A stretch of DNA of 64,000 nt from Psammoneis japonica (taxonomy: Eukaryota): contig QPGO01000015.1 in NCBI GenBank assembly GCA_008632985.1, forward strand, positions 435,998 to 499,997. Direction: 5' to 3'. Both the position numbers and the translations under genes were made by a program. Positions 1 through 42,667 of this stretch are shown piece by piece. Position 1 is the stretch's first letter. Each line of letters starts with the position of its first letter. Below the pieces are notes generated by a model, which worked only from the letters and a program-made list of their open reading frames with translations, was not told the DNA's origin and made no database searches.

Positions 1-620
1 CCCTTGCTCAGCTTAGAATCTGCAAAAAATGTTGCAAAGCAAAACAGACTTCTTCATTCTTGCATCAATGGTGAAGGAGGAAAATTTCCATGTGCGTGAC
101 TTCCAACAATGTGATCTCACGAAATGCACCACCATCTTTGTGGTGGAGAATGAGAAAAAGCACAGCAAGCACAAACCAGGGAAGCTCTGTTGGGATGACC
201 TGGGTGCAGAAGATTTCTGCACCAACTCAACCAATGTGCACCACAGTTGGCTGTCAGTTGTGCCCTTCTGCCGCAACCACTTTTTGACATTGTCGTCTCT
301 CTCTTGCTCTCCTCACACCTGGCAGGCCTGCCTGGAGCTCAGCACTGGACCTCAATTTTTGACCCTCTCTTCTGTTTCCTTCTCTGTGGGGATCTCATCA
401 TCAACATCACAAGATTTAACCAATGCTGGAGTGTTCTTGCCTGGTGGAGGGCCCTCACACTCCAGCGGAGGTTGTGAACATTGTGGTGTGATCTGAGCCT
501 GCTGGTGCTGCTGGGTGCTGTGAGCAGCTTTTGGGATGGAGTGCACACTTGTTGTTCTGGGTTGGTGGCAGTGGCAAAGCTTCAGTTGTGCCAGTGCTTA
601 AAAAAGAGTGGGTTTCGGCA
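1..620 (-). mobile_element. Degenerate non-LTR (LINE-like) retrotransposon fragment, N-terminal part of the reverse transcriptase, truncated by the window edge
   Basis: Minus-strand frameshifted pieces read DVDDEIPTEKE..., KKWL...LWCTLVELVQ, KDGGAFREITLLEV, WKFSSFTIDARMKKSVLLCNIFCRF*AEQG. These follow the order of LINE RT motifs (PT.EE; W..LV.LVQ; K..G.FRgI.LLE..WK...IID.R...hgFR..rG). The region is TpA- and CpG-depleted. Confidence 0.55.
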
Positions 621-1153
621 CTTTATCACACACTGGACTGTCTTGCCAAACACGTCCCTGACATGATCAGCGCACGACAACAACGCACATGATGCAATTC
701 TTCAAGATTGACTTTGTCGATTGACTGATTCAACTCACTCAATTTTGCCGCGGGTTGTTGAAAACAAGAGAGAACAAGTGGTGCGCTGCTCTCTAGCTGC
801 CGTTAGAGGCACCGGCGCATGGAGAGAGTAGAGAGAGAGAGAAGGTGCCGCACTGCTGCTGTGTGGTGCAGTGCGACGAGCCCAAAGATCATGTTGTCGT
901 GGGAACAAGTGGGAAGACGAATGACTCATTATCGTGATCGCGCGCTGAGCGAGCGAGCGCCGCGTTGGCGGCTGCCGGCTGATGCACGTTTCTCACTCTC
1001 TTCATTCGTCATCACCCCGACTGAGTTGGAAACATTGCTCCCATCATTAAAATGTCAAACGTTTAATGGGATACAATTCATGAAACTCGGAAACATCGTA
1101 TAGTTCTTAGCGAGTGAGTTCGAGAGGAAAAGAGGAACGCAAAAACGCGCCAA

Positions 1154-3791: not shown

Positions 3792-4042
3792 GTTGTTCAC
3801 TTGGATGTGAGGAGAGAAGGAATGATTTCTGTGAATCGAGAACACAGCCTATTGTCGAGAATTTTTTTGTGTCAGGAGAGAAGAGATGATATTATTTGTA
3901 AATCGAGAACACAGCCAATCGTCGATACAGTATCGAGGCGTTGTGTGCCTTCAGGCATCTATCCAAATACATACCACAACGCATTACACCACGAATTAAT
4001 TTGTGAGGAAAGAAATGTCTGCTGGTCATTTTAGGGCCCCAG

Positions 4043-4215
4043 TGCAAGCTCAAGCTGAAACTGATGTCAAAACAAAGAAGTGAGTAGACCGAAGAGAGGG
4101 CGGGGAGCCTACAGTAAGCGTTAGCGAACGCTGGCGAGCCTCTCTCAAACGGCTACGTTAATCTAATATCCAAAATTTATACTATATATCAGAAGCGTGC
4201 GAGTGAGTTGCTGCA
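4043..4215 (-). repeat. 3' LTR of the Gypsy element (173 bp)
   Basis: Direct repeat of 9333-9496, differing by two small indels (9 bp in total) and one substitution; adjacent to the PPT. Confidence 0.95.
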
Positions 4216-4338
4216 CTCTTCCCTTCCATGATCCGAAAGAACTAGAGGATCATGCAAAGGGCCAAAAACCAAGGACCAAAACCAAAAGTAAAGACAATAA
4301 CAGGAGGAAACCCAGATGTTGGGAAGAAAACCCCCTGA

Positions 4339-7300
4339 TCAACCGCGAAAAGGAATCAGGCGCCGAATGTCAAGGTGCTCAACCACATGAGGAGCTCGAC
4401 GAACCGAGAGCGTGCCACTTGCATGCACTTGAACAATGGGACAAGGACCATGAGCACGAGGCTCGAGTCTGGATGGCTCAATGTACTTGATTAGAACTTG
4501 ATCACCCACTTGACAATCGCAGGATCTTCTCTTGGCATCAGCTCGTCGCAAGTTGTCGTTGATCAGCGTCTGGCGATGGCCTTGAATCGTCAACAAATCC
4601 GCCAGCACTGGGACATCCAAAATCATGTCACGTCCGAACACCACAGCACCTGGTGAAATCTGTAAGGAACGGGAAACAGCACAGCAGGTTGCATGCATTG
4701 CAGTTGCCAAAGCATCGTCCACGAGGCCAGCTGCACCCTGAAGGTTTTGAGGTGGATTAGAAGCAATGAGCGCGCGCAATGCATTGCCGACAGTCTGGTG
4801 CATTCATTCACAAATAGCGTTGGCTTGAGGGTTGTATGAAGCAGTCAGCACATCATCAATTCCAGCTCGTTGCAATGGCATCTGAAACTCACACCCGGTG
4901 AACTCGCCGCTGTCATCGTGGATGCATCGATTCGGTCTGGGACAGCGTGCAAGCCAGCAGTTTTCGAATTGGTTGGCAACATGTCGAGCAGTTTTATTCT
5001 CAATTCTCACCAGTTCAACAAGATTGGAGACAGGATCAATGCAGGTCAACGCCCGAAACTCAATCTCTCCATTTGGTGCTTTGATTTTCCACGGGCCAAT
5101 GAGGTCAACCGCCACTTCCGACCAGGGAGTCAATGGAGCTTCTCGTTCGGGCAGCTCTCCATGGCCAGGACCCAAAGTTTTGTTACGTTGGCAATCAGCA
5201 CAAGAACATTCATCACACATGCGACGCAACCCAGGGTGATGACAATGAGCCTGGATTGTTTCACGCATGCGCTGGCTTCCGGCATGGCCAAGGACGAGAT
5301 GATGCCACTGTAAAATGTTGGGCACAAGCGCAGTCGGCAAACAGATTTTCCACTGTCCTGGAGGATCATTTGGTTGCATGCGATGACACACAAGCAGTTG
5401 ATTATTCACACATTCCATGAGGAAACGATCAGGGTGAGCAATGCGCATCTGGTTCAATTGTTGGTCCTCGAACTGGCACTCTTGAATCCGTTGTAACGTC
5501 ATTGGATTTTGCATCTCCTGCATCGCAGGGTAATTCAAAAAGGAATCGAACAGTTCCGGCTCATCAACAAAGAAAGAGAAGAAGTGTGAGTGGCCTTCAT
5601 TTTCAATGTTGCGACAACACTTGAATCGGCACGCGCCGAGCTCCAAGTCCTCATCGCGGAAATCCTCGACTTCGGATGGTTCCTCACTCGGCACCAACTT
5701 CGAATCGAGCGGAGCAAAATCAACAACAGTTCCTTTGCCCGGAGCCAAGCTCTTCCCTTCAGAGGGAGGATCCATGTGAGGCAAACGAGAAAAACAATCA
5801 GCCAAGACATTCAAGCGGCCTTCGACACAATGGAATTGAGGGGCAAAGTCTTCCAGAAAGAGGCGCCAACGGAGCACACGTTGTGAATTTAAGGTGCGAA
5901 AGGCAAGGTTCTTGTGGTCGGTGAATGCATGCAAGTCACCGCCAAGGAGCATCGTTCGGAATTCACGGAAGCACATGACAATGGCCAAGAGTTCTTTTTC
6001 GATCGTCGAGTGGTTTTGTTGCTGCCGCGTTCAGCTTTCGAGACCAGCATGCAATGGGTTTTCCGTCTTGTACAATCACTGTGCCCATTTGGCAATCACT
6101 GGCATCGGCACAGATGTGGAAGGGTTTGTCATGATTCGGATGCGCCATCAACGTCTCGGCCGCTAGCACTGCTTTCATCTCTTCGAACGCCGCCTGACAA
6201 TCTGCTGTCCACGTCCATGAGCCTTTGCCTGTGAGATCTGCCAAGGGTTTCAACAAGTGAGAACGCCGAGGCCACATGTTGCGACAGTGTGTCACAGCAC
6301 CAAGAAATGAACGAAGCTGCTTGACATTTTCCGGAGGTTGCACTCGCAGAACAGCTTCCACTTTCTTCTTCCAGGGACGAATTCCAGTCGGAGTCAGCCA
6401 ATGCCCAAGGAAATCCGTTTCCTGCACACACCATTCACATTTCAAAGGGTTCACTTTAAATCCAGCTTCTTTCAAACGTTGCAGGAGTTTGTCGAGACGA
6501 GCAAGGTGAACATCAAAATTGTCATCAAATTGAGCGAGATCATCAATGTGCGCGTCAACGTCCAAGTCATGTGCAGTTTTCTCAATCAAGTGTTGCGCAA
6601 CATCCGGAGCCGGCTTCAAACCCATTGCCAGACGGCAGCATCGATGCTTTCCAAAGGGTGTCACGATTGTCGTCAGATCTTTGGAATTGTCATCCAGTTC
6701 AAACGTACAGTGCATCATTGAGAGATCCAACTTTGTAAGAAATTTGCACCCGGCTCTCTTTTGCAACACATCTTGGATGATCGGCAAGGGACAAACCTTG
6801 CGCTTGAGGGCTTTGTTGAGTTCCCGAAAATCGCTGAGCCACCGCACTCGACCATCTTTCTTCGGCCGAATAAAGGCACCTGCAGCCCATTCCGAAGTTC
6901 CGGCTTCTTCAAGAACGCCAAGAGCCACTGAGTGATCCAATTCTCGCTTGAAAGTCTCGAGATCATTGTGCGGCACCGCATGCGCTCGAGAATGGTGCGG
7001 AACGGCGTCAGGATCAACATCAAGGTGAACTTTTTCGCCAGCACACTTGCCAAGGGTGCCATCAAAAAGAGCAGTGTGTTTTTCCAACACGAGACACAAT
7101 TTCTCTTGCTGTTCGGCAGTGGGATGCTTCTGAGCTGAAGCTGCTTCAGAAGGGGACGTCTCCTCATGCTTTGCATCGAGGATGTGGCCATCCCACACAT
7201 CATCATCATTAGCTGGCTCATCAGTCAAATCATCGAGCCATTGCTGGATGCTAGTCCGCTGATTCCTCGGCTTCATCGCAATGCTTGAACCGAGCCACTT

Positions 7301-7831
7301 GACAATTCCGTGTTCGAAATCCAATGTGACACCCGCTCTCGCCAAGAAGTCCTGTCCAAGGATCATGTCACATTGGCAGGGTGAGTCAAACACATGCGCA
7401 TGCATGCCATCAACATGTTTGGTCTCATCAAATTCAGGGAGCACCAAGTCCTGCAGTCGAACATAACGAGTTGATTCGAATTCTCCTGCCATTGTCCCAA
7501 ACTTTGCACGAATCGGTCCTGTCTCTTCCAATGCTGGAACCGCTCCAACCGGCAACACCCGAGCATGAATCATTGAATGGGTTCCACCGGAATCAAGCAA
7601 CACCCGCATCACGCGCTTGCTTTCCTCATCTTGAATGAATCGTGCCACGAATGAGGTTGCAGGGACCACATTTAATGGTTTGGTTGGTTTTGTTTTTGGA
7701 GTTGGTGCAGCGCACTCAAGTCCCACATCGTCTTCGTCATTCACAGTGCAATTTCCGAAATCGTCATCATCAAATGAATCAGCAGCATGTGCATGACAAT
7801 CATCAATGCAGTCAGCACAATCATCAAACAT
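4339..7831 (-). pseudogene. Gypsy pol (protease, RT, RNase H, integrase), frameshifted, with Tyr codons converted to His/Cys
   Basis: Protease LLDSGG. RT DFRELN, TPFGK, (Y>H)IDD, FLGH. RNase H DASD, SRKL, TDHKNL, NVLADCFSR. Integrase HLVLGH..CADC, DLIGPW, NPQANAICE. GP(Y>C) motif. Confidence 0.9.
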
Positions 7832-7882
7832 GTGAGAATCAGGAGCGACACACTCGGACGACAGCTCTTCAAGCTCATTGGG

Positions 7883-9097
7883 TCAGCATCGACTGCGTCC
7901 CGAGAAGCGACCACCAGGTCGAAAACTTCCCGTTCCACCTCGATGCTCTCAAGGCCCTCCTGTCGAATCAAGATGATGGCTTTCAGCAGACCAATCATTG
8001 GGAGGAGCCGTTCTGGCCGGATTGCCGTAACCGCCGCCATCTGCATTGGTTCGGGTGTCGTTTTGACATTGCATGTAAGAGCCACCATCATCATGATGCT
8101 CGCCGCTGTTGCCGCCAGAGTCACAGTTTCCGCGACCACCGTAGTTTCCTCGGCCACCACCATGACCTTGACAGCCACGGCCTTGCCAACCACAACCTTG
8201 TGCTCCGCCATGACCACGACCTCCGCCTCGACCGCCACCTCGACTGCCACGGCCACCACATCCGCGACCTCCACGATCAGTTCTTGGACGGCAGTTGTTA
8301 GAATCGGGATTCATGACGCAATCTTTCCACTTGTGATTGTGAGCATGCAAAGGACATTGAGATTCTGGGTCAACACGATTGCCTTTCTTCTTGGTGGAGC
8401 CGCCACCTTTCGACTGTCTGTCTTTGCGCTTCTTCGAAGTCTTCTTGTTCCCATCTGCAAATGATTTCTCCGTGCTCATGCACGTGACAATTTCCGCTGA
8501 CGTGTCATTTCCAATCGTGCATCCTGCTCTTGTGCACATCTCGCGCCACGACAAAGGGAAGCCATCGAAGATCATCTTCTTCTTCTGGTTCTGAGTGACA
8601 ACTGGATTATTTCCCGGCAACTTGTTTGTGTGTCGCACCAAGGTCTCCATTCGATCCGCGTGTGCCTGCACTTCAACATCGTGTGGCTTTTTAAGAGAGA
8701 GCAAGTGTTCAATCATCGTGTCACGCGCTTCAGTTTCACAATGTGACAAATAAAAACGAGCCAATTCTTGGTCAAAACGAGCCACCGTCTTCTGCGCATT
8801 CGGAATCGCCATGGTGAGATTGGACCATTTGTCTTCAGCGGTGTCTGTCAACACTTCCTCGAAATCATCAAACAGTTCTTTGCCTGCAGTGAATTCAAGT
8901 TTTGCAGCCAGTTTACGAAAATGATCTTCCATGAACAACAACACTTCAATGCCATTGGTTCCATCAAAACAAGGGCACTTCTTCGCACGCGTGCTACCAT
9001 CATCATGCGATTGAGTCAATTTTGCAAGTTCCAAATCCGAATGAGCAAATTTCACAGCATGCAAAATGCACGGTTCTTTAAGGCTCTCGCGATTACT
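7883..9097 (-). pseudogene. Gypsy gag with zinc-knuckle-like motif and Gly/Arg-rich tail
   Basis: ORF 7949..9121 contains CPLHAHNHKWKDC and a GRGG-rich tract. In-frame TGA codons at 7949-7951 and 7883-7885. Confidence 0.8.
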
Positions 9098-9332
9098 CAT
9101 CAGGCCAAGTTGGTCCTCCAAGAAACTGCTTCAAGCACTCTACCTTCGACTCGAGTTGTGCAACCCGAATCGCCAAATCCTGTTCGCGTTGTTTTCGTGT
9201 CTCCTTTTGCCGTTTTTGTTCCAAAGCCCAACTCGCTGCCTTCGCTCTCAATGTTCTTTTCTCTTGTTTTGTAAGCCCATTGGTTGTATCGTTGTTTCTC
9301 ATTCAGCTCTTTACAATCGACTGTAATTACAG

Positions 9333-9496
9333 TGCAAGCTCAAGCTGAAACTGATGTCAAAACAAAGAAGTGAGTAGACCGAAGAGAGGGGAGCCTAAGC
9401 GTTAGCGAACGCTGGCGAGCCTCTCTCAAACGGCTACGTTAATCTAATATCCAAAATTAATACTATATATCAGAAGCGTGCGAGTGAGTTGCTGCA
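9333..9496 (-). repeat. 5' LTR of the Gypsy element (164 bp)
   Basis: Direct repeat of 4043-4215; contains a TATA-like tract (tactatatat). Confidence 0.95.
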
Positions 9497-10137: not shown

Positions 10138-10905
10138 TCAGTCTTCCTCAGAGCTTTCGTCATCAGACGATGGCGCTTGCGCTAGCGTGGCGTAAGCGTT
10201 GGGGTATTGTGATGGATTTTGAAATGATGGGTGCACAGGCACAACCGGCGGAGCGTCGTGGGATAAGAAAGGTAACAGCTCTGGCGGAACTCCAGGAGGT
10301 GGTTGATGCATGTGCATTCCATACTGTGGAATACCATGTGGTGGTGGTGGTGGAGGTGGTGGAGGAGGCCGATGAAACTGTTTACCAACGGACCAACCCG
10401 CGTAACTGGGAGCCATTTGTTCTTGTTCCGGCGATGGGGTATCCTCTTCGTCAGAACTCGGCTTCTTCAGCGACAAACGAATCTTGGTCTTTTTAGTTGG
10501 AGAAGCCTCACTCTCATCAACACCAGCGTCACCTTCATCCATTGCTTTCTTTCTGCGTTTCCCCGTAGTCTTTGCCTTTTTCTGTTTCGGACCATCGTCT
10601 GCTTTCGATTTCTTCTTCCGCTTGGCTGCTGGTCCCTTTTCGGATTTTGCAGCGTTTTTCCTGGGAGCTTTTCGGGATGCCCTGGTTGCAGTGGGACGCT
10701 TCCAAACCGAAGATGAAGAAAGTGTTCCTTCGGGACTTAGGTTGGCACAGATTTCTTCCATCCAAAACCGACGTTGTGCCCTAGCAGCAGCCACACCTTC
10801 TTGTGCAGCCAACACTGCATGCGTCAGGTTCTTATGTACCTCTCGCCAAGCCTCCAACTCTGCATTTGAGCTCTGTGATGTCTCTGTCACTGCAGAATAC
10901 TCCAT
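10138..10905 (-). CDS. Hypothetical, probably nuclear, low-complexity protein (N-terminal helix, Lys-rich NLS-like tract, poly-Pro)
   Basis: 255-aa ORF with ATG start and normal TpA/CpG content; divergent from TTC4. Confidence 0.65.
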   Translation of the reverse strand: MEYSAVTETSQSSNAELEAWREVHKNLTHAVLAAQEGVAAARAQRRFWMEEICANLSPEGTLSSSSVWKRPTATRASRKAPRKNAAKSEKGPAAKRKKKSKADDGPKQKKAKTTGKRRKKAMDEGDAGVDESEASPTKKTKIRLSLKKPSSDEEDTPSPEQEQMAPSYAGWSVGKQFHRPPPPPPPPPPHGIPQYGMHMHQPPPGVPPELLPFLSHDAPPVVPVHPSFQNPSQYPNAYATLAQAPSSDDESSEED

Positions 10906-10955
10906 AATAAAGGTTTGTTTGAAACTGAATTATTACCAACACCAAATCAGAAGAG

Positions 10956-10983
10956 CAACAACAACAACAACAACAACAACAAC
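10956..10983. repeat. (CAA)9 microsatellite in the divergent promoter/5' UTR
   Basis: Seen directly. Confidence 0.9.
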
Positions 10984-13026: not shown

Positions 13027-13349
13027 ACGCAGGTTTCTGGAGGGTCGAAGGTGGCTACGATTGCGAAAGTACTGTAATTCTTCTAGTCTCCTAATATCTG
13101 CTTCGGGAGTAGCATGTAACAACTCATGAGCGAACCCATTCCATAGCTAGTATCTTTGGCGCCTGGCTCCTCGTTGTTAAGCATGTTGTCCAAAATGTGT
13201 GTAAGTTTGGGTGTGGGGATAGATGCAGCAACCTTAGCATGAACTCCTACGGCAAAATATGCGTAATTCTTCTAAGCCAGTTGCCATCAGAGCGCCAACG
13301 AACTCGCGCGTAGTCAACGGCCCCGTCCTCCAAAGTAGCCAGTACATGG

Positions 13350-15808
13350 TCAAGAATCGATTGTGTGAGATCTTGATTTCGAACAAGGCGCCTTCCTTGA
13401 GGCCGCACAAGGCGCAATTAGACTTTTGATGCCAACCGTTCCTTCCGTCTTTGAGTGATTCAAGAGAATCTGCTGGATCCCTGGTCGGTCTCGACAACCA
13501 CTGTGGATGTGAGGCCGGCATGAAAAGAAGGCCTGAACAACTAGCCAGTCTCCATTTTCACACCCGTGTTGATGACCCAGACCCAGAAAAATCCCTTCTT
13601 GTAACTTGCAAGACTTCTGACAGTTTTGAGCACAGACACATGATTGGTGGTTAAAAGCATCTGCCTCAAAAACTTTCATGCTGACGCACCCAAGAGTTTG
13701 AAGCGCACTTGATTGAATCTGAATGGGCCAAAACATGGAGCACACTGTCATGCCCCAATCAAAGATTGCAACATTCATTCCTTTCTGGTGGAGTGCAGAG
13801 CATGCAGCCACCACCACAACAAGGCCAGAAACACCATCCCCTGCATGCAATTGTGACTTTTGCATTGAGTTCAACCTTCAAAACTGTTTTGCTTGGGGTG
13901 TGACCTCACTTTTCTTAACTGCCTGTGCTGTCCACCCACTTTCTGCACTTCATCTGCTGTCTCTGGTGTTCTCAAGGGTCTTTGGCCTCACAGAAGCAAG
14001 CTTCCACAACCAAACTCACTTCTACATCAAAACATGATGAAGTGCTCAAGAGGACAAAACAAAAGCAACAGCGAGTCCAGTTGCCCTGCCACCATTCCAA
14101 GGAAACAAGCAAGCATCTGCTCAGTTGTTGGTGAACACAGATCCTGGAGACTTCTGTCTAATCATTCCACCCACCACACAAAAATGGTGTGTGCTGGCAG
14201 CAGGGGACGAGTGTCATGCCAAAAAGTGAAAAGTTCTTTCATGGCTTGCACACATGCTTCCACATCACAACACATCTTTGCTTCAATCACCAACCATCTG
14301 TTTGTCATCAATGCACATTTTGAACACTGTCCTTTGCACAAGTGCAGAGACTTCAACCAGCTCACCCAGCAACCATGAAAACACTCTCATCCCTCTGATC
14401 ATTGCCTTTCTTGGCTTTGGGACAATCTGCTTTTGCTCCTGTGGCACCCTGCTTTCAACATTTCCATTTGCTCTTCTTTTTGCAAACAACATGCCAATTT
14501 CTTGATCATCTTCATGGAGCTTTTAATTTGCTTTCCTTTGGATTTCTGCTCCCAACACATGTCAAAAATTGCAAAGCATTTTTGTGGCCATCTCGGGGCT
14601 TTTCATTCTCTGAGGTTGAACACACAGCCAAATTTCTTCTTGCAAACACCATTCAACAACACGGCGGGGCTCGACACTTGTTTTTTTTTTCAATGTCAGC
14701 AGCCCTGTCAGGCTCAAAGACATGCTGGCACTCCTTTTGGCCAGCCTCGTCATTGGCACAACTCCTCCACAAATCCTTTTCACAACCTCTGCCAAGCCTG
14801 TGAATTGCTTGCAGCAAGCCAACAGGTCCCAATTGTCCCCTTGCCTGCAAGGCAATGATGCCCTCCATTTCTTTGAAGCTTGAGGTGGTCTGGGCTTCTT
14901 TTTGTGCACAACATCTAATTTCTTTTTCAAGACACTGCAGCTCTTCTCCAAGCTTTCAACTCTGTTCAACGCAGACTTGTCACACCAGCTTGTCACAACA
15001 GTGAACACCTTGGCTTTGCAGTCAGAGCACCTTGGCTCATTTTTCACACACTGATTGCACCACTTCTTGCCCCAGATTGCCCCCTCTCTTTCCTCTTTCA
15101 CCACCAGTCTTGGGATGCTCAGGTTCAGAAAATGCCGTTTTTTGTGAAAGCAACACCAGTTTCCATGTTGTTGCTCTGTGCACACACACTTGACAACATG
15201 CTCAGCTGTCTTCTTGGCAGTGGTCTCATCACACTCATTGGCCCCAGCTCTGCCAGCTGCAATGGCTTGCTTGTGCACCTTCACAGCTGCTCTGTTGCCT
15301 CGCCAACTTGCTGTTTTTCATCTTGACTTGCTCACTTCTTTGAGAGCAGTGGCATTGTTTCCAAAGGAGATGACAAGCATCTCTTTCCTGTTGCTCATTC
15401 TTCAAACAGAGCATCAAATCTTCCCCAGCCACTCATTTGGCCAGAGCAACAAATCTCTGCAATGACTTTGTTGCTTCAGCCAGCTCAAAGGCTCCACAGT
15501 CATTGATGCACTGACAAAATTTTAGACTCCTCTTGACTTCCTGGCCAGCTCTTTTCAGCATGCACCAGCTTTTGGACAATGCACAGCCCCTGGAAACTCC
15601 TTCTGTCTGTTGAATCCACCACAAATGCAGCATGCTCTGACAGCCACACTGGCTGAGGGTTGCTGCAAAAAGCAAGAATTTTTTCATGGCTCACACATGC
15701 TTTCACATCAAACCACACATTTGCTTCAAAATTGCTGGCTGTCCCTCCACATTGTCAATTTACATTTTCCAATGTCAGCCATGTGCATGACATTGTGTGC
15801 TTTTCTCT
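13350..15808. mobile_element. Old degenerate repeat-derived sequence, family unassigned; left part of the domain interrupted by Copia
   Basis: Nearly devoid of both TpA and CpG, with many Cys/His-rich overlapping ORFs. Continues into 22890+ when the Copia element is removed. Confidence 0.5.
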
Positions 15809-16084
15809 TGACAGAAATTGAAGGCAAGTGGCAAGAATTCAAACAATGACTCCTTGCTGCTGTCTAAACAGCAGATGAGTCTCCGCTCAGAGACCGTCAC
15901 AGGAGCCAAAAGATGTGCAAGTCGGCACAATCGGGCTGCTGTTGTCATTCTTGTGAGCCTTGTGGCTCAAAAGCAAACTACATCGCGCGCGAACGCGCGG
16001 AACTAAAGCACACAAAACTGTGCATGGCAAACTAAACAGCGTGGGACATTTTGCGCGCACCCAAATCCTGTTCAAATCCTGTCA
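15809..16084 (-). repeat. 3' LTR of the Copia element
   Basis: Ungapped direct repeat of 22614-22889 (offset 6805). Confidence 0.95.
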
Positions 16085-19000
16085 CTCCCCAGTTTGCTTG
16101 AAGAGTCACAGAAACAGATTCGACTTCAGATGGAATGAAGTTCCAGAACATGAGGGGGCGGAGAAGGTCCCAGACTTGGGAGCAACCCCAATGCTTGCTG
16201 AGAATGTCAGCAGGGTTGCAGGAGCCTTCGATGAAGTGGAGCTCAAGGCAACCAGAGGCAATTGCCTCACGCACACGGTGGAATGACAGTGTGGTGTGTC
16301 GCTTGTGTAACTTGGAGTGCGGGATGGTGGCACTGTCTACAACCGACTTGTTGTCACTGAACATGCAACTGATGTCACGGATCGGGACGCTGAGGCAGCG
16401 CAGGGTGATGCGCAGGTCAACAATCTGCTCGACACAAGTCCTTGCGGCAACAAATTCAGACCCGCAGGTCGCAGTCTCCACGGTGGCTTGCTTCTTGGAG
16501 AACCAATCAGCTGGGAATTTGTTGAGGAAGTGGAGCATTCCCATGACAGAGCGTCCGGTGAGCATGCAATGGCACAAGTTTGCATGGACGCAGTGGGTGG
16601 CAGTGACAAACTTGCCAAGGGGTGGTGGAGCGTCCTTCAGGATCATCTCTTCTGCTTCGCCACACACGGAATGCATCCATTCACAGGCCGGAGCAGGGAG
16701 ATCCGAACAGTCGGGCTCTTCTGTGGGAACGCGGAGAGTGCCGTGTCGCATCTTGGAGAGGTGCCCACAGACGCGTTTGGCACGATCCAAGTGGCCTTGA
16801 CGGGGTGCAGCTCGGAAGCTAGAGAGTGACATGACGGCCGTGGCAATGTCAATTCGACCAAGGGACACTGCCCATTGGAGTGAACCAACAAGAGACTGGA
16901 ACTGTTGAATGCCATCGGGCCCCAGCAGTTCGGAAGTGTCCAGTTCGGGGTGGTCACCCTTCTCCAGAGGTGACAGGGCGTTGGTGGCAGGCTTCTCCCC
17001 AAACAGTCATGTGTGGCTGTTGACCATGCGTTCAATGCACTTGCGCGGAGACAGGCACAAGGTGCCATCAGGATCCCGGGAAAAGTCGCAGCCCAGATGG
17101 AACTCAATCGGTCCCGCACCCTTGAGCTTGAACTTGTGCTTTTCTGTGAGAGCATCGATGAAAGATTGAGGGTCCTTCATGGCAATGGCGAGGTCATCCA
17201 CACAAACGGCAATGCATTCGCAGTGGTCGCTGTTCCTGCGCATCCAAATGTCGGGTTCGGCGCGGCAGGGGAAGAAACCTTCAGCTCGCAGGCAGTCGGT
17301 GAAGCGCTCGTGCCAGCGGAGGCCGGAGCTGCGCAGTCCATGCAGGGCCTTGTGGATGACAAGAATGTGGCCTTCGAGTTTGACAAATTCGGGTCCAGCC
17401 ACAATGCACAGCTTCTCTTTGGTGGTGGCTTCAAGGCAGGCATTGCCAATGTCGGTGGCCCATGTCTCCAACTCGTTGAGTTCGGCCAGGAAAATCATCA
17501 GTCGAAGGCCACGGAGGGAGACTGCTCCGGAGTGGACACCATCGATGGGCACATCCGTGAGGTGCCCATTGGCTGCGAGTCGTGCCTTGTGGCGAACGTC
17601 GTGCACGAGGTGCACTCGGATCTTCTTGTGTCCCGCAGGAGGAGTGGAAGACTTGGAGGGCCCGCAGTCATGGAAGACTTTGTGTTCATCGAGTTGGTCC
17701 ATCTCGAGATTAGTTGCGTCTCCCCATTTGCGGTTGCCGTTGCGTTCGTCTGGTGACATGGCGTGTTTGTAGTTCCGGGGAACTTCGCATCCGCACTTGC
17801 AGCGAGGTGCAGTGCGGAAGGAGCGAAGCTTGGCTTGGTTGGCCATGTGGAACAGCTTCTTCTGGTGCCTCGCGATGGTGCGGAACCGCTTCCAGCCATC
17901 AGTGTCGAGAAGTCCGTTCTCTCGTGCACAGATGGCGCAGGTGACAGGGTCGTCCTTGGCGATGATGGCAAGAGGCTCGGACGTGATCTCCCCACTTTCC
18001 CATTCAAGCACAATGTTGTAGCTTGAGCCTTTCCAGGTTGGGTCATGAGGCTTCAGAGGTCCTTCGTGTGACACAATGCGTCGAAATTTCCAAACAGCAG
18101 TGTCTTTGTCTTCTTGCTCAATGTGATTCATGATGTTGTTGCAGGCCAGGACTTCCTCACATTCGTCGTTGTTGACAGAGCAGACGAACTCAGTGAGCTC
18201 GGGGTTGCCGTTCACTTTCCATTCGTGGTCTTCGACGGCCTTGACGATGCATGCTCTGTGGCGTTGTCCGTCCTCTTGTGGCTGCATGAGGAAGGTGCGT
18301 CCGATGATGTCTTGCGGATCGAAAACTGGCATCTTGGGTGTCCTGATCTCCCCATTGGGTGAATCGACGGGGTTGTCGTCATGGTGAGATTTGATGATGG
18401 GTTCAGGTGGCTCCCCATCAGGAGGATCAAGATGCAGGTTTCGAGTGGCAGGATCGGTGGCAGCGGATCGTACGTTGGACCGGCAGAGGATCTTCTGAGT
18501 CTCGTCAGAGAGCATCTTGAAGGTCATCTGGTGGCCGACGTGCTCAGCAATGCCAACAAAGCGTCCACGCAACTCACGGGATTCGGACGGCCAATCGGAG
18601 TCATCGAGGTGGAAGCACATGGGTTCCCACCAGTGAAAGCGAAGCAATGGGCTGATGTCCGGGGTGGAGCCAGTGAGAGTCTCGAGGGGCGTGCGCCAGT
18701 GGAGACGTGGGGACGCTGCATGGTTGAGTGTGAAGCACACACACATGAGTGCCAGCAGCCATGTGTGGGCAGGCGAACCGAAACGGTCCATGACAGTGTT
18801 TGCCACGCGCTTCACGGTCTGGTGTCGATGTTTGGCAAAGTTTTGGTGTTGCTGGTGAGGCTCACTTTGCCAGCTGGAGACAAAGAGGGCTCATAGGATC
18901 CCGAGCACCTTGTTGCTGATCTCAACTTGAGCACGGTTGCCAATGAGTTTGGATGGAGCACCACGCTCACGGATCTGATCCTCGAGTGTGTTGACAAACT

Positions 19001-21699
19001 CTTTGTCCATTTTGGTGCCGCAGACGTCAGTGACGGCAGACTTGGTGCCAACAAACAGTTGGGCGCTGGTGCAACCAGAGTCGACGGCCGGGGTGTCGGC
19101 ACAAATGGTGTCAGTGGCGATGGGCTCATTGCGGCGGTGCACATTAAGGGCGGGGTTGGGCGATTTGTGGGCCTTCTTAAGGTGGGCACCGGCGGGCATG
19201 CGGGCGCACTGCATGGTGCAGTCGAAAGTGCGACGAACCGCATCGGCAGGTTGGAAGCCAAAGCAAGACCGAAGAGACTCGCAGGGGGGGGTCCTTGGGC
19301 TGCACAGTGCGCTCCGGGGGCAGAACGTCGTCGTCCTTGGGGTCAATCGCGTGTGGATGACACTTGTGGAACACGTCGTCATTCGGAATGAGGTGGTCAT
19401 CAAGGGCGGACGCGTGATCGGCAGACAAGGAGGCGGACATGATGGCCTTGTTGACAACGACACGGTGACGGCAGTTGCTGCATTCATAAAACAGGTTGGC
19501 AGTGGGATCGTCCTGCAGGTCAGAGATCGCGTCGCACCACTGGTCGTCGTCAGTGACAGAGTGATCAAGGACGGAAGGATCCCATGTGTCATCACCGGCA
19601 AGGATGACATGGGGCAGGGTGTCCCATTCGGTGTCAGTGCAGGGTCGCATGGCAACATGAGGCAGGCCGCCCTTGATGTCAATTTGGATGACACAGCCAT
19701 CAGGGGTGGTGATGCGTTGCAAGCCGTTGGGCACCTTGACAGAGCGATCGTTGACATCATGTTTGTGCCATTCGAGCTGGCCACAGGAATGAATGGTCTT
19801 GCCCTTTCCCGTGCATGTGCACTGATGGAGGATGGCGATGACGGGACCACGCTGTGTCTCAATGACGGCACCAGCGGTGACAATGGGGATGCCCACCAAT
19901 TGATGGTTGTCAATGCCCTGAACGTCGACTTGGCGAGAGGTGCATGCAATGACGTGAACATCGTTGCCAGCAATGCCGCCGTTGGCTCCACGATCAACCA
20001 GAGCACCAGTGCATGTGGAGCAATGAGCGGAGGCAGAGCAAATGACATTGTGGTTGTCAACGCGGCGGCAAGTGCGGCTGTTGAGTTCCATGTCATCTGT
20101 GGGAGCAGGCAAGGTAGAGGGAGCAGCGGATGGGCCCGGTCGACTGGCGTTGGGGGCTTGGTGAGGAGACAACAGGCGTTGCAGATCACCGGGTGGCAGT
20201 GGCTTGTGCTTGGTGAGGTGCGCCAGAATGGGATTGTCTGAAGTGGCACCCACATTTGGAGCGGGGTCACCAGAGTCAGCAGGAATCGTGTTGGACAAGT
20301 TGACATCACCGTCACTCCCAAGTCGTTGGTCGTGAAGGTTGACCGCAACGGACTCATGGCAGTTGCTGGCTCGCGGGTTGCGGGGAGGCGGACGAGAATG
20401 CTCAAGGATGATCGCCTTAGAGGAATGGGGCAACGAATCCCAAATCCCAAATCCGTTGGTGGTCAGGAGGGAGACGTTTCCATTGGTCACCGGCGAGGCT
20501 GGGACCGCGGGTGCAGGCAGCGTCAGCCTGAAGGACGTCAATGTCGCTGTCGATGTCATAGAACACATCATCGGATGGTTCCTCAGAGTGGACGTCGTGT
20601 GCACACATGGCGCGTCGGGGAGCTCGAGGTGTCGTCTTGGGTTGAAACGTGCTGTCGCATTGAGCCGCCGTGGAGAGGAGCAAGCCACAACATTGATCGC
20701 ATGTGAGGCTCTTGCCACTCTGCGTGCGATGCTGATCAGCTTGGTTCTTGACGGCGCGGAGTTCCTCGACAGGATGCACGGCATTCTCGAGCACTTCTGT
20801 CCTTCAGAGAAGTGGTCACTGGCCGGGATGAGTGCCTCGTGCTTGCGCAACTGGTCCTGCCAATGAAGGATGAACCCGTGGGTCGGACCTTTCCAAGTGC
20901 CATCACCAAGGCGTGCGGTGGTGAGGTGCGTGAGCAAGGTGGAGGACTCGACAGATGCGCGGGTGGAGGCAAGCGCGCACTCGGACAAGGCGCGGCAGAT
21001 GGTCTGGGTGTCAGAAGACCCCACATTTTCGCGAATGAGAGCCTTGCCCTTGTCGGTGAGAAGGATGTGTTCAAAGACGGCGAACATGTGCTTTTGCTGT
21101 TCAGCAAAGAGCAGTTTGTCTTCGGGGCTGGTCGGTTTGTACGACGAGTCTAGAATGCACTTGACGTCTTGGGCACGGGCTTGTGCCACAAGTGAGGTGT
21201 GCCAAGTGTGCCATTGCTTGTCGGATTTGAGAGCCGTGAAAGCAGTGGGGTCACGCTTGATGCCTCGCTTGAAGTCTTGCACCGGGTCGCGTGCCTTGGT
21301 CGGGTTGGTGACATGCGGAGGTGCGAGAGGTGAGCTGCCGACGGACACAGAAGACATGCAGTCGGGACTGAGGCGGCAGGCAAGGAACTCCTCATGCGTG
21401 AACAATGAGGAGTCATTGGCAACATCAAGGCCTTCGTGTGCTTTGACAATGCACAGACTAACTGGAGCTGCCAACATGTTCTCACAACCTCGGGGCAATG
21501 GGATCACATTGGTGCCGTTGTCGCACTCAAGCGAGTCGATTTGGGAAGGTGTGAACGTGAACAGTTCTTGGTGCGAGTCCATGTCGTCATGGGTCAAAGC
21601 CAAATGAAGAGGGCTTCCAGCACCTTGGGCAAGTGCAGTTCCAACAACGTGCTCGAAACCATCGGTTTGTTGCTGACAAGTGAGAACCATGGCAGACAA
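16085..21699 (-). pseudogene. Copia gag-pol polyprotein, broken by several frameshifts, with Tyr codons converted to His/Cys
   Basis: gag FKRGIKRD. Protease ALVDRGANGG. Integrase IATDT..DTPAVDSG, FVNTLEDQIRERGAP. RT HKARLAANGH, DIGNA(Y>C)LEA, KAL(Y>H)GLRSSG, (Y>C)VDDL. RNase H SKKQATVETAT(Y>C)GSEF, DNKSVV, NPADILSK. Confidence 0.9.
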
Positions 21700-22613
21700 A
21701 AGCGGTGTCAGGACAAGCGATTCTTGTTGGGACGCGGAGGTGGACTTGAAACTTGAGTGGGAACAGACTTGACTTGAAATGGACTTGACTTGAAATCTTG
21801 AACCATCTTAAAATCAGAAGTCGCCGGGTTGTGCCACCCCGTTCATTGTTGAGTGCTGAACTTCCCATCCGGTCCGCAGAGTTGTGCCGGCAGGCCAGCG
21901 GCGCTTTGGATTGCTTGCGAGTGGAGCAGCGGGTTGCAAACCCCTGCAGGCAAGCTGACTGGAGGTGGACAAGACCCCAAAACCATTTCTCATTTTACAT
22001 TGGTTGGATTTCCCAATTGGGCTGGCCAGTTGACGCAGGCGCCAGGCGCTGTGGACGAACGAACAAACGTGGGAAAACACCCTCGCCCCAACGCAGGCTG
22101 CAATCACGGCTGCTTGCTCTCACAGTCGTCCTCGTGGACCTGGCAGAACTGTGGAGCACCAGAAGTCCGGGGCAGATCAGGTGCAATGGACTCGGTGTGC
22201 TTGTAAAGTGGCAGCAAAGCCGCAGTCCAAAGAGTGGGTGCAAGTTCTTGGCTGTGAAGATGTGGACACATGTGTGTCTTCAGCGACGAAGATCCTTGAA
22301 TGTGTGGGGTTCTTGACCGTCAACCGTTGAATGGGCACATGAAGGGATGAGGATCAAGGACAGACTTGGACATGACCGTTGCATGCATGTCTTCAGCGAC
22401 AAAAGGCAGCACAATCAATCCAGATGTCCAGCGGCAAGGAGACTTGACGGTGACGTTAACTTCCTGCCGATGCCTGGCATTGAATGCGCGTAGACTTGCC
22501 GATGTACGTAGAACATGTGCGGAGGTCCACGCAGAATTGAAAAGCGTCGTCAGTAAATCAACGACGATGATGGCAGTTGCTCAATGGGTTGACAATGAGC
22601 AAGACTGTTAATC

Positions 22614-22889
22614 TGACAGAAATTGAAGGCAAATGGCAAGAATTCAAACAATGACTCCTTGCTGCTGTCTAAACAGCAGATGAGTCTCCGCTCAGAGACC
22701 GTCACAGGAGCCAAAAGACGTGCAAGTTGGTGTAATCGGGCTGCTGTCATCATTCTTGTGAGCCTTGTGGCTCGAAAGCAAACTACATCGCGCGCGAACG
22801 CGCGGAACTAAAGCACACAAAACTGTGCGCGGCAAACTGAACAGCGCGCGACATTTCGCGCGCACCTAAATCCTGTTCAAATCCTGTCA
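22614..22889 (-). repeat. 5' LTR of the Copia element
   Basis: Ungapped direct repeat of 15809-16084. Confidence 0.95.
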
Positions 22890-22894
22890 TCTCT

Positions 22895-23032
22895 GGTCAT
22901 CAAGCCAAGAGAAAGGGGGTTGCAAAGGTGCACTGCAGGGCATGCCCATCCCCATGCATGACATTGTGGGCTTTTCTCTGGTCATCAAGCCAAGTGAAAG
23001 GGGGTTGCAAAGGTGCACTGCAGGGCATGCCC
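22895..23032. repeat. 85-bp tandem duplication at the Copia target site
   Basis: ggtcatcaagccaag.gaaagggggttgcaaaggtgcactgcagggcatgccc occurs at 22895 and 22980. The start of the first unit (catgacattgtg.gcttttctct) lies left of the element at ~15786-15808, which confirms the empty-site reconstruction. Confidence 0.85.
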
Positions 23033-25170: not shown

Positions 25171-25562
25171 GATGGACTGGCCAAGAGATCCATGCTCATT
25201 TTGCCCGTTGGGGCTGAACAGCATCTTAGACCATGATCTGAGGATGTGCTCCTCATGGAAAGGCACCATTTGAGACAGTGTGGCAGAACAGTCAGAGTGC
25301 AAGATGATCCTCGGCCGCCAAAGCAGTCTCCACAATGAGTGGACCCAATCGGGATTTTAGAAACAGATGGACCAGCCAAGAGATCCACACTTGTTTTGCC
25401 CATGGGGACTCAGTGGTGCAGGACCATGATTGTGAGGATGTGCTTCTTATGAAGAAAGGCACCATTTGAGATGGTGTGGCAAAATGGGCCAGAGTGCGGT
25501 TCAATCCTCGGCCGCCGAAGTGGTCCCTGCAGTGCAGCAGACCCAATCGGGATTTGAGAACA
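25171..25562. repeat. Diverged ~195-bp tandem duplication
   Basis: Units start at 25171 and 25366 (gatggac..gccaagagatcca ... aaaggcaccatttgaga ... tcctcggccgcc ... gacccaatcgggattt). Confidence 0.8.
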
Positions 25563-26574
25563 TGTCCCCACATGAAGATGGCGCCACAATGGCACGACCG
25601 TGGTCAACACAAATGGGGAAAAAGGGTGGGAGGTGCACTCACAAGATGGCGCCAAATGGCATGGTGACAAACAGCGCCAATGCACTGGACACTCCCAGCT
25701 GTGCAAGCAGACTGTGCATGGGATTTTTTGTTGACTGACAGGGAGAGGAGAGAAAGCCCATTCAACCCTCATCGTTGGCATCTCCTTGGAGATGCCTTGA
25801 CAGTTCCATGGTGTCTCCCAACCTGCCAGACAATGAGGGATCCCTTGGGCTGGCCTTGTTTCTTGTTTCACTCGCTCATCTCGTCCATCGTCCATCCATC
25901 ATCTCCATCCATCATCCTTCTTCTTCACCCGTTCTCCTGCTTTTGCATGGCGTGACTCTCGGTCCAGCCAAGGAGGTCCTCTCCTTGCTGGGCTTAGCCA
26001 GAGTCTTGGCCACGGCCATTGTCATCGGCCCAAACACACAGCCTGAGGCATTGGGAGGTCATTTCCACCTTTCCACCACTTGGCCACATGCATGTGTCCC
26101 ATGTGGCACCGCCGGCATGGAGAGCCGGGCGTGGCGTTGTTTGGGCCGATGGCAAGACCGCCGATCTCTTTTTCCGTCCATGCCCGCCATGTGTTGAAGT
26201 TGAAGCTGCGCCGTCTGACTTGGGGCTTCATGACGTCATTTACATTTATGGATTCGTACAAGTGCTACAAAAACTCATCAGCACTGCAGAAATCTTTTAC
26301 TCTCTGACTCTATGTAGAATTCTAAATTTTCGATGGCGTGAATTCCCGCGCGATTCCCTGGGCGATCTAAGGAGTTCAACTTGCAATGAAGATCGTGGTC
26401 GCGTGGCCACGTTCAACCACGGTGAAACCAGCTGCAACCACAAAGATTGCCTCAAGCCTATGCTTGAATGTGAAAACACCTGGTGCGATCGTTGTAATTG
26501 CCACGAAGCAAACGGCCTGCGAGTACCTTAACCGCTCTTCAGATTTACAGTTGAGATCGATGACGATTCCAACC

Positions 26575-42520: not shown

Positions 42521-42667
42521 ATGGAATTGGCAGCTGCTGCGACGGTTGTTGCAGTCGAACCCCCCTGCTCTTGACCACCACAAACAGTGGAGAGACTTGG
42601 GAAGCCTTTGAGAATGAGCCCAACAACTCAGGCAACCTCCAATGGGTTGCCTCCCCACTCTCTGCCT

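Follow-up and report, generated by a model that had tools for sequence, protein, structure and literature searches.

Hypermutation at the dinucleotide TpA is known from the chlorarachniophyte Bigelowiella natans, where integrated NCLDV and virophage DNA undergoes TpA>TpG/CpA changes (Mettrop et al., bioRxiv 10.64898/2026.01.13.699255, 2026). In mutation-accumulation lines of this alga two viral insertions gained 231 mutations, of which 230, every one at TpA, were A>G or T>C; the mutations arise de novo in chromosomal DNA in episodes, with rates of roughly 1e-7 to 1e-6 per site and generation, the target is single-copy, TpA-depleted coding sequences are enriched for RT and DDE domains, and an ADAT2-like adenine deaminase is proposed as the agent (bioRxiv 10.64898/2026.01.13.699255). 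Within the literature searched, this one 2026 preprint on one chlorarachniophyte is the sole description of TpA-specific hypermutation; diatoms are unmentioned in it, and no report of TpA hypermutation in diatoms was found. We analyzed a window of 64 kb (the whole stretch of 64,000 nucleotides, from the apparently pennate diatom Psammoneis japonica), in which a mutational process has very probably turned 5'-TA-3' into TG or CA in transposable elements and other repeat DNA but not in the neighboring genes, with the same signature as in B. natans. An earlier note on this DNA had tied the phenomenon to a single Gypsy element and had not recognized it as a described pathway; the B. natans preprint overturns the latter statement, and a Copia element and further unclassified blocks carrying the same signature overturn the former.

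The likeness to B. natans lies in A>G and T>C changes almost exclusively at TpA, giving TpG or CpA on either strand, in their limitation to foreign or selfish DNA, with an ordinary spectrum elsewhere in the genome, and in a long-term footprint of TpA loss with CpA and TpG gain, RT- and DDE-bearing coding sequences being in the depleted set. In the window, A:T>G:C changes at TpA were found on both strands and in selfish DNA only. The hosts, however, belong to different branches of the supergroup (a chlorarachniophyte there, a diatom here), the footprint is far deeper here (TA observed/expected ratio, O/E, of 0.07–0.14, compared with 0.45 in the NCLDV region of B. natans), the DNA affected here belongs to LTR retrotransposons and unclassified repeats, and mutation was observed in real time there but is read from its footprint here. 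An extended context effect and a sparing of the LTRs, both seen here, are absent from the available text of the preprint.

Dense transitions with sharp borders, restricted to repeated or selfish DNA, aimed at a dinucleotide and destroying coding capacity, are features shared with fungal RIP. RIP converts CpA into TpA and so enriches TA; here the direction is opposite, as the earlier note had seen, with TA depleted ten-fold, CA and TG enriched and GC content raised, and the reading frames stay open instead of being filled with stops. RIP proper (C:G>T:A at CpA with TpA enrichment) is contradicted by the outgroup-polarized loss of TA. In edited proviruses the LTRs are less affected than the interior, as they are here, and the heavily mutated integrated copies recall the deaminase-type hypermutation of retroelements by APOBEC3 or ADAR in animals. 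Those systems act asymmetrically on the two strands (G>A, or A>G limited to the coding strand), in contrast to the 20 vs. 13 changes reported below, and the phenomenon here also extends to blocks that are not retroelements and to LTR differences that arose after integration. One-strand editing of intermediates of the APOBEC/ADAR type was rejected, both products occurring on the coding strand in Gypsy and in Copia. A further likeness to ADAR is the preference for a 5' U, which the Discussion of bioRxiv 10.64898/2026.01.13.699255 cites for that enzyme.

The Gypsy element and its loss of TA

The element that had drawn attention is a Ty3/Gypsy LTR retrotransposon on the minus strand (4043..9496; gag, protease, RT, RNase H, integrase), identified from its LTR pair and ends, the Pfam domains RVT_1, RT_RNaseH_2, RT_RNaseH and Integrase_H2C2, and 45–64% identity of the polyprotein to diatom-type Gypsy polyproteins. 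Its Ty3/Gypsy characters are LTRs with TG..CA ends, a target-site duplication (CCCAG, 5 bp, intact, read directly at 4038..4042 and 9497–9501), a purine-rich (polypurine) tract on the minus strand directly inside the 3' LTR (4216–4227) and the order PR-RT-RNase H-IN; no tRNA primer-binding site was recognized in the element. The coding part (4339..9130, minus strand) consists of ORF pieces for gag (7949–9130), PR-RT-RNase H (5963–7882), RNase H-IN (4804–6030, with a frameshift near 6023) and, beyond a TGA at 4804–4806, the IN C-terminus (4339–4803), all on the same strand. The 3' LTR (4043..4215, minus strand; 13 TA, O/E 1.11 measured on 4043–4216) and the 5' LTR (9333..9496, minus strand; 12 TA, O/E 1.05 measured on 9333–9497) are not TA-depleted and are near-identical; apart from one substitution, they are distinguished by a 9-bp indel and a short rearranged stretch next to it.

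The TA depletion of this element is real. Over positions 5001–9000, 1-kb windows have a TA O/E of 0.06–0.15 with CG at 0.77–0.99, CA at 1.53–1.71 and TG at 1.16–1.38; in the gene-bearing 1-kb windows (27001–40000 and 50001–64000) TA is at 0.41–0.82, and the host ORFs of the window have a TA O/E of about 0.6 and contain 1.9–3.2% Tyr. The TA-poor block extends over 4290–9094, and both it and the coding part have a TA O/E of 0.11 and a CG O/E of 0.88, in agreement with the near-absence of TA beside abundant CpG that had first been noticed; the depletion concerns the coding part and spares the LTRs. The 4.8-kb coding part retains 34 TA vs. about 261 expected from the composition of related elements, a loss of about 87%, and the UTRs are intermediate (0.44–0.47). 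None of 79 related Gypsy loci from metagenomes shows the signature (TA O/E 0.45–1.00); therefore, TA depletion is not general in diatoms. Family composition was excluded as the cause, given these 79 loci and the 2.5–5.3% Tyr of 120 related polyproteins.

Loss of TA also depends on the flanking bases. Tetranucleotides containing TAA or TTA are retained at 0.22 vs. 0.061 for the rest, relative to related elements (Fisher p 1.7e-4), and the ranking of contexts is the same when measured against the window background; ATAT and ATAC are nearly gone, TAA/TTA being partly protected. The reading frames of the TA-depleted blocks stay open because TAA and TAG disappear.

Direction and strand of change at conserved tyrosine codons

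The 622-aa ORF at 5963..7831 does contain a single Tyr, besides 32 His and 22 Cys. Alignment of the Gypsy element with 60 relatives shows that none of 21 conserved Tyr columns is kept, 12 now reading Cys (TGY) and 9 His (CAY), as the earlier note had read them in several motifs, and that, of the 414 other conserved columns, 371 have stayed the same. Among the altered columns is the active-site Tyr codon of the YxDD motif of RT (6548..6550, minus strand), now CAC (His; alignment column 6550, consensus Y, window H), with Tyr in at least 70% of the aligned relatives and at least 20 of the 60 relatives aligned at the column. The Copia element described below, aligned with 150 relatives, keeps none of 13 conserved Tyr columns (8 Cys, 4 His, 1 Phe), and 292 of its 325 other conserved columns are unchanged. 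For the two elements together, TGY or CAY has replaced 33 of the 34 conserved Tyr codons, and CGY (Arg) occurs in none of the 34.

The same context emerges at first codon positions, where T precedes 8 of 11 A>G replacements in Gypsy and 4 of 5 in Copia (12 of 16 together), the remaining 3 of 11 in Gypsy lying outside a TA context; among unchanged codons starting with A, a preceding T is found in 3 of 69 and 1 of 45, respectively. The relatives, serving as outgroups, show that TA is the ancestral state, and both strands of the TA step are shown to be affected: 20 Cys (A>G on the coding strand) vs. 13 His (T>C) were counted, and equality is not rejected (binomial p 0.30). The strand-symmetric A:T>G:C change at 5'-TA that had been proposed is thus supported by the Tyr columns together with the dinucleotide profile.

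Other repeats of the window and timing of the mutations

The footprint, with a TA O/E of 0.07–0.14, extends across 27 kb of the 64-kb window, including five blocks at 0.08–0.14 whose edges are less than 100 bp wide; block borders coincide with element ends. Comparison of the repeat blocks with the rest of the window gives a TA O/E of 0.10 vs. 0.59, CA of 1.66 vs. 1.15 and TG of 1.58 vs. 1.10, at a GC content of 0.51 vs. 0.48. CG also differs from the rest of the window, in the older repeat blocks, and the remaining 12 dinucleotides shift by at most 0.10 (TC 1.07 vs. 1.17; CC, AT, AA and TT unchanged). The excess in TA context that the earlier note had asked for is therefore found, only TA falling and only CA and TG rising apart from the CG shift in older blocks, and the confinement to repeats with sharp edges holds within the window.

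A Ty1/Copia LTR retrotransposon with the same TA signature was identified on the minus strand (15809..22889) from its LTR pair, Pfam RVT_2 and tblastn to relatives. Its LTRs (15809–16084 and 22614–22889, minus strand) are 94% identical, it is flanked by the target duplication TCTCT (15804–15808 and 22890–22894), and its TA O/E is 0.07 in the interior, 0.23–0.30 in the LTRs and 0.56 in the 5' UTR. It is inserted into an unclassified TA- and CpG-depleted repeat block, the left part of which, defined by its dinucleotide profile, covers 13344..15808 and the right part 22895..26257 (TA 0.08, CG 0.36, measured on 22734–26257); the latter contains a tandem duplication of roughly 195 bp (25171–25560). 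Further unclassified TA- and CpG-depleted blocks lie at 40050..45852 (TA 0.09, CG 0.33), with tandem repeats of 177–186 bp at 41637–42514, and at 47531..50238 (TA 0.14, CG 0.44; sharp edges), and a TA-depleted block truncated by the window start occupies 1..930 (TA 0.12, CG 0.38). A Pfam scan of the unclassified blocks 13344..15808, 22895..26257, 40050..45852 and 47531..50238 yielded no family. In the older blocks (CG O/E 0.05–0.5, vs. 0.88 in the Gypsy coding part) 5mC deamination at CpG is a separate overlay, and replacements of the CpG type in the alignment comprise R>* (TGA), R>H, R>C and V>I after C. TA loss is shown not to be explained by CpG decay; the two processes are independent.

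Contigs of the public run X1, which possibly represents the sample behind the window assembly and hence serves as a technical control rather than as biological replication, match both Gypsy flanks with 0 differences and reproduce the TA-poor sequence, which answers the concern about base calling raised with the first observation. They contribute 475 pieces at ≥99% on the Gypsy element, among whose copies 312 transitions vs. 30 transversions are found. At the 35 best-supported variant sites, among the 40 listed of 342 variable places, TA is restored at 3 and 14 are of the CpG type; at 5 CA/TG double sites among the listed places the other copies all have one shared state. At positions 4371 and 4539 the window has Asp (T|GAY), where the coding strand of the other copies reads CA and the relatives have Asn; therefore, the ancestor was T|AAY, hit on opposite strands, independently in different Gypsy lineages.

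The Copia LTR pair differs at 3 TA<->CA/TG sites, 2 CA/TG double sites and 5 CpG-type sites among 13 mismatch events (16 bases); the TA-site differences mean that at least some mutation took place after integration. Between in-window paralogues, the pairing of CA in one copy with TG in its partner outnumbers every other kind of non-transversion difference (32 vs. 25 of CpG type, beside 36 transversions); most of the 32 are unpolarized, and CpG decay can also give such differences. Much of the Gypsy TA loss, on the other hand, probably predates the present insertion, because the LTRs are near-identical and not TA-depleted and other copies share mutated states. The TA-rich, near-identical LTRs, the intact target duplication, the polypurine tract and the shared states indicate that the mutated lineage seems to have kept spreading. 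The claim that the mutations inactivate the element accordingly holds for its coding capacity, which is destroyed, and not for the lineage. Most TA loss of this copy was probably inherited from an already mutated lineage still mobilized in trans, selection presumably having kept the LTRs and the primer and polypurine regions intact. By summed depth in run X1 the family is multi-copy and the LTRs are as repeated as the interior (1789–2026 vs. 500–3738), and they keep all TA, including the favored contexts ATAT and ATAC. Such TA-rich yet equally repeated LTRs are unforeseen by a simple in-situ, repeat-triggered mutator. The repeat targeting put forward in the earlier note would be one possibility, the target in B. 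natans being single-copy.

Candidate mechanisms and wider meaning

The process most probably amounts to A:T>G:C transitions at the palindromic TA step, on one strand or the other, in transposable elements and other repeat DNA of the diatom nuclear genome but not in neighboring genes, and its cause would be an enzyme that chemically alters a base of this step. Foremost among the candidates is a DNA-acting adenine deaminase of the ADAT/TadA type, which would turn A into hypoxanthine, read as G; Pfam scans of the 64-kb window revealed no deaminase gene. The main chemical rival is thymine oxidation: a TET/JBP-type dioxygenase may act on the T of TpA in silenced repeats and yield 5-hydroxymethyl- or 5-formyl-uracil, and occasional pairing with G would give T>C, hence TA>CA or TG. 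Oxidized thymine can mispair with G, and the sequence pattern fits equally well, TA being palindromic and both products occurring. We nevertheless consider thymine oxidation improbable, as the TC and CC ratios given above reveal no TC>CC component. In dinoflagellates, another SAR lineage, 5hmU takes the place of thymine preferentially at TA and TC, is concentrated on repeats, and both marks transposable elements and silences them (PMC11572971); it is an epigenetic mark for which no mutational footprint is reported, and no TC effect is seen here.

The adenine could also be edited during retrotransposition, by a TA/UA-specific adenosine deaminase acting on genomic RNA (TA>TG) and on single-stranded minus-strand cDNA (TA>CA), so that copies would be born mutated, with the LTRs spared by early double-stranding and cis selection. 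From retrovirus biology, LTRs become double-stranded early in reverse transcription, and this reading accommodates the contrast between the undepleted Gypsy LTRs and an interior with almost no CpG decay, the intermediate UTRs, the similar Copia gradient, the sharp block edges at element ends and the mutated states common to other copies, as expected for a lineage accumulating mutations while transposing. It is unlikely all the same, since the Copia LTR differences at TA sites are necessarily post-integration, R-U5 and U3-R are also single-stranded in RNA, so that RNA editing should affect the LTRs, four blocks without recognizable reverse transcriptase (though possibly decayed retroelements) share the signature, and in B. 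natans the signature appears in single-copy viral DNA that is already integrated, while the alga grows vegetatively and no reverse transcription is involved. A deficit without any targeted mutator is hardly credible. UpA suppression is common in transcribed sequences and the background TA O/E is already below 1, and CpG decay, plain in the older blocks, also makes CA and TG. However, selection (avoidance of a TA/UA-reading nuclease or of a TA-targeting transposon) cannot account for the replacement of all 34 conserved Tyr including the catalytic YxDD of RT, GC-biased gene conversion would lower AT, AA and TT too, CpG decay cannot remove TA and has left most CpG in the Gypsy interior, and a sequencing artefact at modified bases disagrees with the run X1 contigs and, if strand-mixed, should give the CGY codons that are absent. 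The Tyr columns, dinucleotide profile, CpG level and run X1 contigs refute all of these for practical purposes.

With TA-directed mutation of selfish DNA as the preferred reading, the process is not a one-species curiosity and reaches a second major SAR branch, in diatoms, which have great ecological weight and include genetically tractable species; the same pattern in a diatom and an unrelated alga suggests a wider genome-defence chemistry. Tentatively, diatoms (or this lineage) and chlorarachniophytes might share a dedicated defence pathway, in which a natural DNA adenine deaminase with a VTAB-like preference rewrites TA on both strands of silenced selfish DNA, leaving open-framed 'zombie' retroelements that are still mobilizable, their TAA and TAG stops erased and their cis-acting ends spared; such a pathway would either go far back in SAR or have spread by transfer. 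An adenine deaminase, if it is the agent, would edit DNA from A to G in nature, as the cellular counterpart of laboratory adenine base editors. Handles on the mechanism are the flanking-base preference, which any candidate enzyme must reproduce, the sparing of the LTRs and the separation from CpG methylation decay. For annotation, TA-free repeats, devoid of two of the three stop codons, give long spurious ORFs on both strands, and the Tyr-lacking proteins of such repeats weaken profile matches.

Distribution of the TA-depleted blocks

Analysis of dinucleotide frequencies in sliding windows reveals that the interval 5001–9000 has TA observed/expected (O/E) ratios of 0.06–0.15, together with CpG at 0.77–0.99, CA at 1.53–1.71 and TG at 1.16–1.38; in the gene-bearing 1-kb windows (27001–40000 and 50001–64000) TA lies at 0.41–0.82. 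A scan for TA-poor runs delimits a stretch at 4290–9094 (TA 0.11, CG 0.88), and the shortage of TA with retention of CpG that the earlier note had described for the interior of a Gypsy element is thus confirmed, and is striking. The same scan yielded further TA-poor blocks at 1–930, 13344–26257, 40050–45852 and 47531–50238 (TA 0.08–0.14, CG 0.33–0.66). The blocks contain 163 TA in 27,160 bp, as against 1,491 TA in the 36,840 bp of the rest of the window. Their edges are sharp (13343/13419, 40049/40094, 45852/45859, 47535/47621 and 50230/50238), the spacing of TA passing from about one per 10–20 bp to one per 100–400 bp within less than 100 bp.

Two LTR retrotransposons, both on the minus strand, carry the depletion. 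The Ty3/Gypsy element (4043–9496) is defined by its TG..CA LTRs (4043–4215 and 9333–9496), a 5-bp target duplication, CCCAG (4038–4042 and 9497–9501), and the Pfam domains RVT_1, RT_RNaseH_2, RT_RNaseH and Integrase_H2C2; a purine-rich tract adjoins its 3′ LTR, and its relatives with names belong to Amphora and Chaetoceros. Two lesions interrupt the polyprotein: a shift of frame near 6023 and a stop codon, TGA, at 4804–4806. Since the base at 6023 is a one-base insertion private to the window copy, absent in 400 of 462 of the summed depth in contigs of the public sequencing run X1, most other copies probably possess a continuous, Tyr-free pol frame. The Ty1/Copia element (15809–22889) sits nested in older repeat DNA, with LTRs 94% identical, a target duplication TCTCT and a GC content of 0.565 (0.477 outside the blocks). 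In the four unclassified blocks and in 1–930 no Pfam family was found among 67 ORFs of at least 90 aa at E values up to 0.01, and a tblastn search of the whole window with 8 Gypsy/Copia relatives matched the two known elements and no others.

Some regions deserve separate mention. At 44001–45000 and 48001–49000 both TA (0.05–0.06) and CpG (0.05–0.10) are nearly absent and CA/TG reach 1.7–2.2; these are presumably the oldest repeats, in which TA and CpG decay are both complete. A tandem array of 177–186-bp units, 76–84% identical and differing mainly by CA/TG doubles, occupies 41637–42514 within a TA-depleted block. A mild TA shortage (O/E 0.27) at 10404–11307 covers a Lys/Pro-rich ORF (10138..10929, minus strand) adjoining a TTC4-like gene, and reflects either low-complexity coding sequence or a mild form of the TA process. 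The gene-like ORFs of the window correspond to JmjC, TTC4-like, VDE lipocalin-domain, COG4, RlmN-like radical SAM and CRAL-TRIO proteins; the best named relatives of COG4 are from Nitzschia, Cylindrotheca and Seminavis (52–53% identity), one further protein reaching 75%. Together with the named Gypsy relatives, these matches identify the host as diatom-like, probably a pennate, and as distinct from Bigelowiella.

Direction, strand and flanking context of the change

The Gypsy coding sequence was compared by tblastn with 60 related polyproteins (45–58% identical), retaining columns with at least 20 aligned sequences and at least 70% agreement. Among the 435 columns scored, Tyr is kept at none of the 21 conserved Tyr columns, which now read TGY (Cys) in 12 cases and CAY (His) in 9, whereas 371 of the 414 non-Tyr conserved columns are unchanged. 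The replacement of conserved Tyr by His or Cys stated in the earlier note is therefore borne out, including the Tyr of the reverse transcriptase YxDD motif (codon 6548–6550). The Copia element behaves in the same way when compared with 150 relatives: Tyr survives at 0 of 13 conserved columns (now 8 Cys, 4 His and 1 Phe), and 292 of 325 non-Tyr columns are kept. TA steps that straddle two codons change like those within codons. Of the replacements that require A>G at the first codon position, 8 of 11 in Gypsy and 4 of 5 in Copia follow a T; of the unchanged codons starting with A, just 3 of 69 and 1 of 45, respectively, do so. Over both elements, the 33 polarised Tyr codons have given 20 Cys and 13 His on the coding strand (p 0.30); since both products occur in like numbers, the palindromic TA can be hit on either strand, and the strand symmetry proposed earlier holds. 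Replacements of CpG type (R>TGA, R>H, R>C, V>I after C, and similar) are also seen. They represent ordinary decay of methylated CpG, a process distinct from the loss of TA, because CpG stands at 0.88 in the Gypsy interior while TA stands at 0.11. Three A>G changes private to the window copy (4773, 6241 and 6343), where relatives and other copies retain Thr or Met, lie in CA, GA and AA contexts and not in TA; they represent either ordinary transitions or weak action of the TA agent outside its usual context.

When strand-collapsed tetranucleotides are scored against the background of the window, TA is retained least in ATAT (0.024) and ATAC (0.029), followed by ATAG (0.07), CTAC (0.09), GTAC and CTAG (0.14 each), ATAA (0.15), GTAA (0.21), CTAA (0.32) and TTAA (0.57). 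An A after TA, or equivalently a T before it, protects the dinucleotide. With 79 related Gypsy loci from metagenomes as ancestral proxy, words containing TAA/TTA retain 0.22 and the others 0.061 (p 1.7e-4). Recognition by the agent thus extends beyond the dinucleotide itself. A further consequence concerns the reading frames: in the blocks TAA and TAG are 3- to 7-fold rarer and TGA is commoner, and the loss of TAA and TAG leaves long spurious ORFs on both strands, which gene finders would annotate as proteins and whose products are without tyrosine. One overlapping pair within 16000–22000 consists of 18979..20241 (plus strand) and 19177..21807 (minus strand).

Alternative explanations, timing and sparing of the LTRs

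An intrinsic composition of the family would be expected in its relatives, and was rejected: the 79 metagenome loci have TA O/E ratios of 0.45–1.00, and Tyr amounts to 2.5–5.3% in the 120 Gypsy relatives listed, as compared with a single Tyr in the 622-aa ORF of the window. None of the 79 is depleted (minimum 0.45), so that no second case of the signature was found among environmental, diatom-type members of this Gypsy clade; the 4.8-kb Gypsy coding part has 34 TA where the composition of these loci predicts about 261. Comparison of blocks with background reveals shifts of at most 0.10 for the 12 dinucleotides other than TA, CA, TG and CG (CG being shifted only in the older blocks), and on this spectrum both GC-biased gene conversion and CpG decay as the cause of the TA loss were rejected. 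Selection against UpA was discarded on the replacement of conserved Tyr in Gypsy and Copia, and both RNA-only editing of the ADAR type and APOBEC-like editing of cDNA on the strand symmetry.

A base-calling artefact, which the earlier note had considered as a possible refutation, was examined with the contigs of X1. These show 0 differences from both unique Gypsy flanks (word depth about 60–64, lengths up to 315 kb) and break off about 27 bases into each LTR, as contigs should on reaching a repeat. A miscall should have restored TA at some 200 places; no such restoration is seen in these contigs, and the artefact was rejected. The comparison is a technical check only, and X1 may be the source sample. 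Contigs of a second run, X2, match the Gypsy flanks only, and a third, X3, gave no match. In X1, 475 pieces match the Gypsy element at ≥99%; their summed depth of 500–3738, which is not a copy count, suggests a family of tens of copies. The variable places among these copies comprise 312 transitions and 30 transversions. Forty of the 342 were examined, and the 35 best-supported sites include 5 where the window has CA and the others TG (double differences), 7 with TA versus CA/TG (3 of these with TA in other copies), 14 of CpG type and 9 other transitions.

The two LTRs of the Copia element, identical at insertion, now differ at TA sites, and TA therefore mutates after integration, at a rate per site at least comparable to that of methylated CpG. 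Their 13 mismatch events (16 bases) comprise 3 TA versus CA/TG, 2 CA/TG doubles, 5 of CpG type, 1 AT/GC double, 1 other transition and 1 transversion. In paralogous pairs within the window the CA/TG double is the most frequent non-transversion class (32, versus 25 CpG-type; 36 transversions), most of these doubles being unpolarisable because CpG decay yields the same picture. Positions 4371 and 4539 of the Gypsy element can be polarised: the window reads T|GAY (Asp), other copies have CA on the coding strand and relatives have Asn, so that the ancestral sequence was T|AAY, hit on opposite strands in two lineages.

Between the two Gypsy LTRs there are a single substitution and, next to a 9-bp indel, a short stretch of rearranged sequence; neither LTR is depleted (O/E 1.11 and 1.05, with 13 and 12 TA, ATAT and ATAC included). 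The UTRs take an intermediate position (0.44–0.47), and in the coding part the ratio is 0.11 (coding versus non-coding, Fisher p 1.7e-14 on raw counts per base, unadjusted for A/T content). The same gradient, weaker, is found in Copia (LTR 0.23–0.30, 5′ UTR 0.56, interior 0.07). The other Gypsy copies are uniform, all in one state, at the five double sites. We infer that most of the TA loss in the Gypsy interior would be inherited, a lineage already mutated having been mobilised onward in trans while selection would have kept the LTRs and the primer and polypurine regions, which act in cis. Alternatively, the Gypsy LTRs may be protected in situ, or editing may take place during reverse transcription.

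Relation to reported TpA hypermutation and to public proteins

The natural substrate of TadA/ADAT enzymes is A34, which follows U33, and thymine, once oxidised, can mispair with G. The core interpretation of the earlier note holds: a strand-symmetric TA>CA/TG mutator that is confined to selfish DNA and runs counter to fungal RIP. The pathway, which the note did not know as a described one, has already been reported in Bigelowiella natans (Mettrop et al., bioRxiv 10.64898/2026.01.13.699255), the one directly relevant paper that a full-text search gave. According to this preprint, two integrated viral regions in mutation-accumulation lines have a mutation rate about 1000-fold that of the remaining genome; of 231 changes, which arose in some lines only, 230 are A>G or T>C, and each of these 230 falls at TpA. 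The B. natans genome also contains clusters and coding sequences poor in TpA and rich in CpA+TpG, with an enrichment of RT/DDE domains, and the candidate put forward in the preprint is a DNA adenine deaminase resembling ADAT2. The window adds to this hypermutation a case from a diatom-like host, in which the footprint is much deeper; its new features are the preference for certain flanking bases and the spared LTRs. Diatoms and flanking context are unmentioned in the text of the preprint, whose supplements may give flanking bases. A possible rival chemistry is suggested by 5hmU in dinoflagellates, which has a TA and TC preference and silences transposable elements (PMC11572971). In the relevant part of a paper on diatom DNA methyltransferases (PMC9998398), RIP is named only in the discussion of DNMT4 phylogeny. 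Our literature search, with most subscription journals outside it, returned no report of the TA pattern in diatoms or their retroelements, nor of TpA, A-to-G or deaminase action in repeats of diatoms; absence from print is unproven.

Among the best 150 Copia relatives from a library of 1.84 billion proteins, three public Copia-like proteins (P0189, P0224 and P0198; 48–53% identical to the window Copia element) bear the same signature, with 9 of 9, 4 of 4 and 7 of 9 conserved Tyr columns, respectively, now Cys/His. They may be from Psammoneis japonica or from other species. Two ordinary Copia relatives used as controls keep Tyr at 6 of 6 and 12 of 12 columns, and a fourth low-Tyr relative, P0278, keeps it at 2 of 2. 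Hypermutated elements of this kind are thus already present, unnoticed, in public collections.
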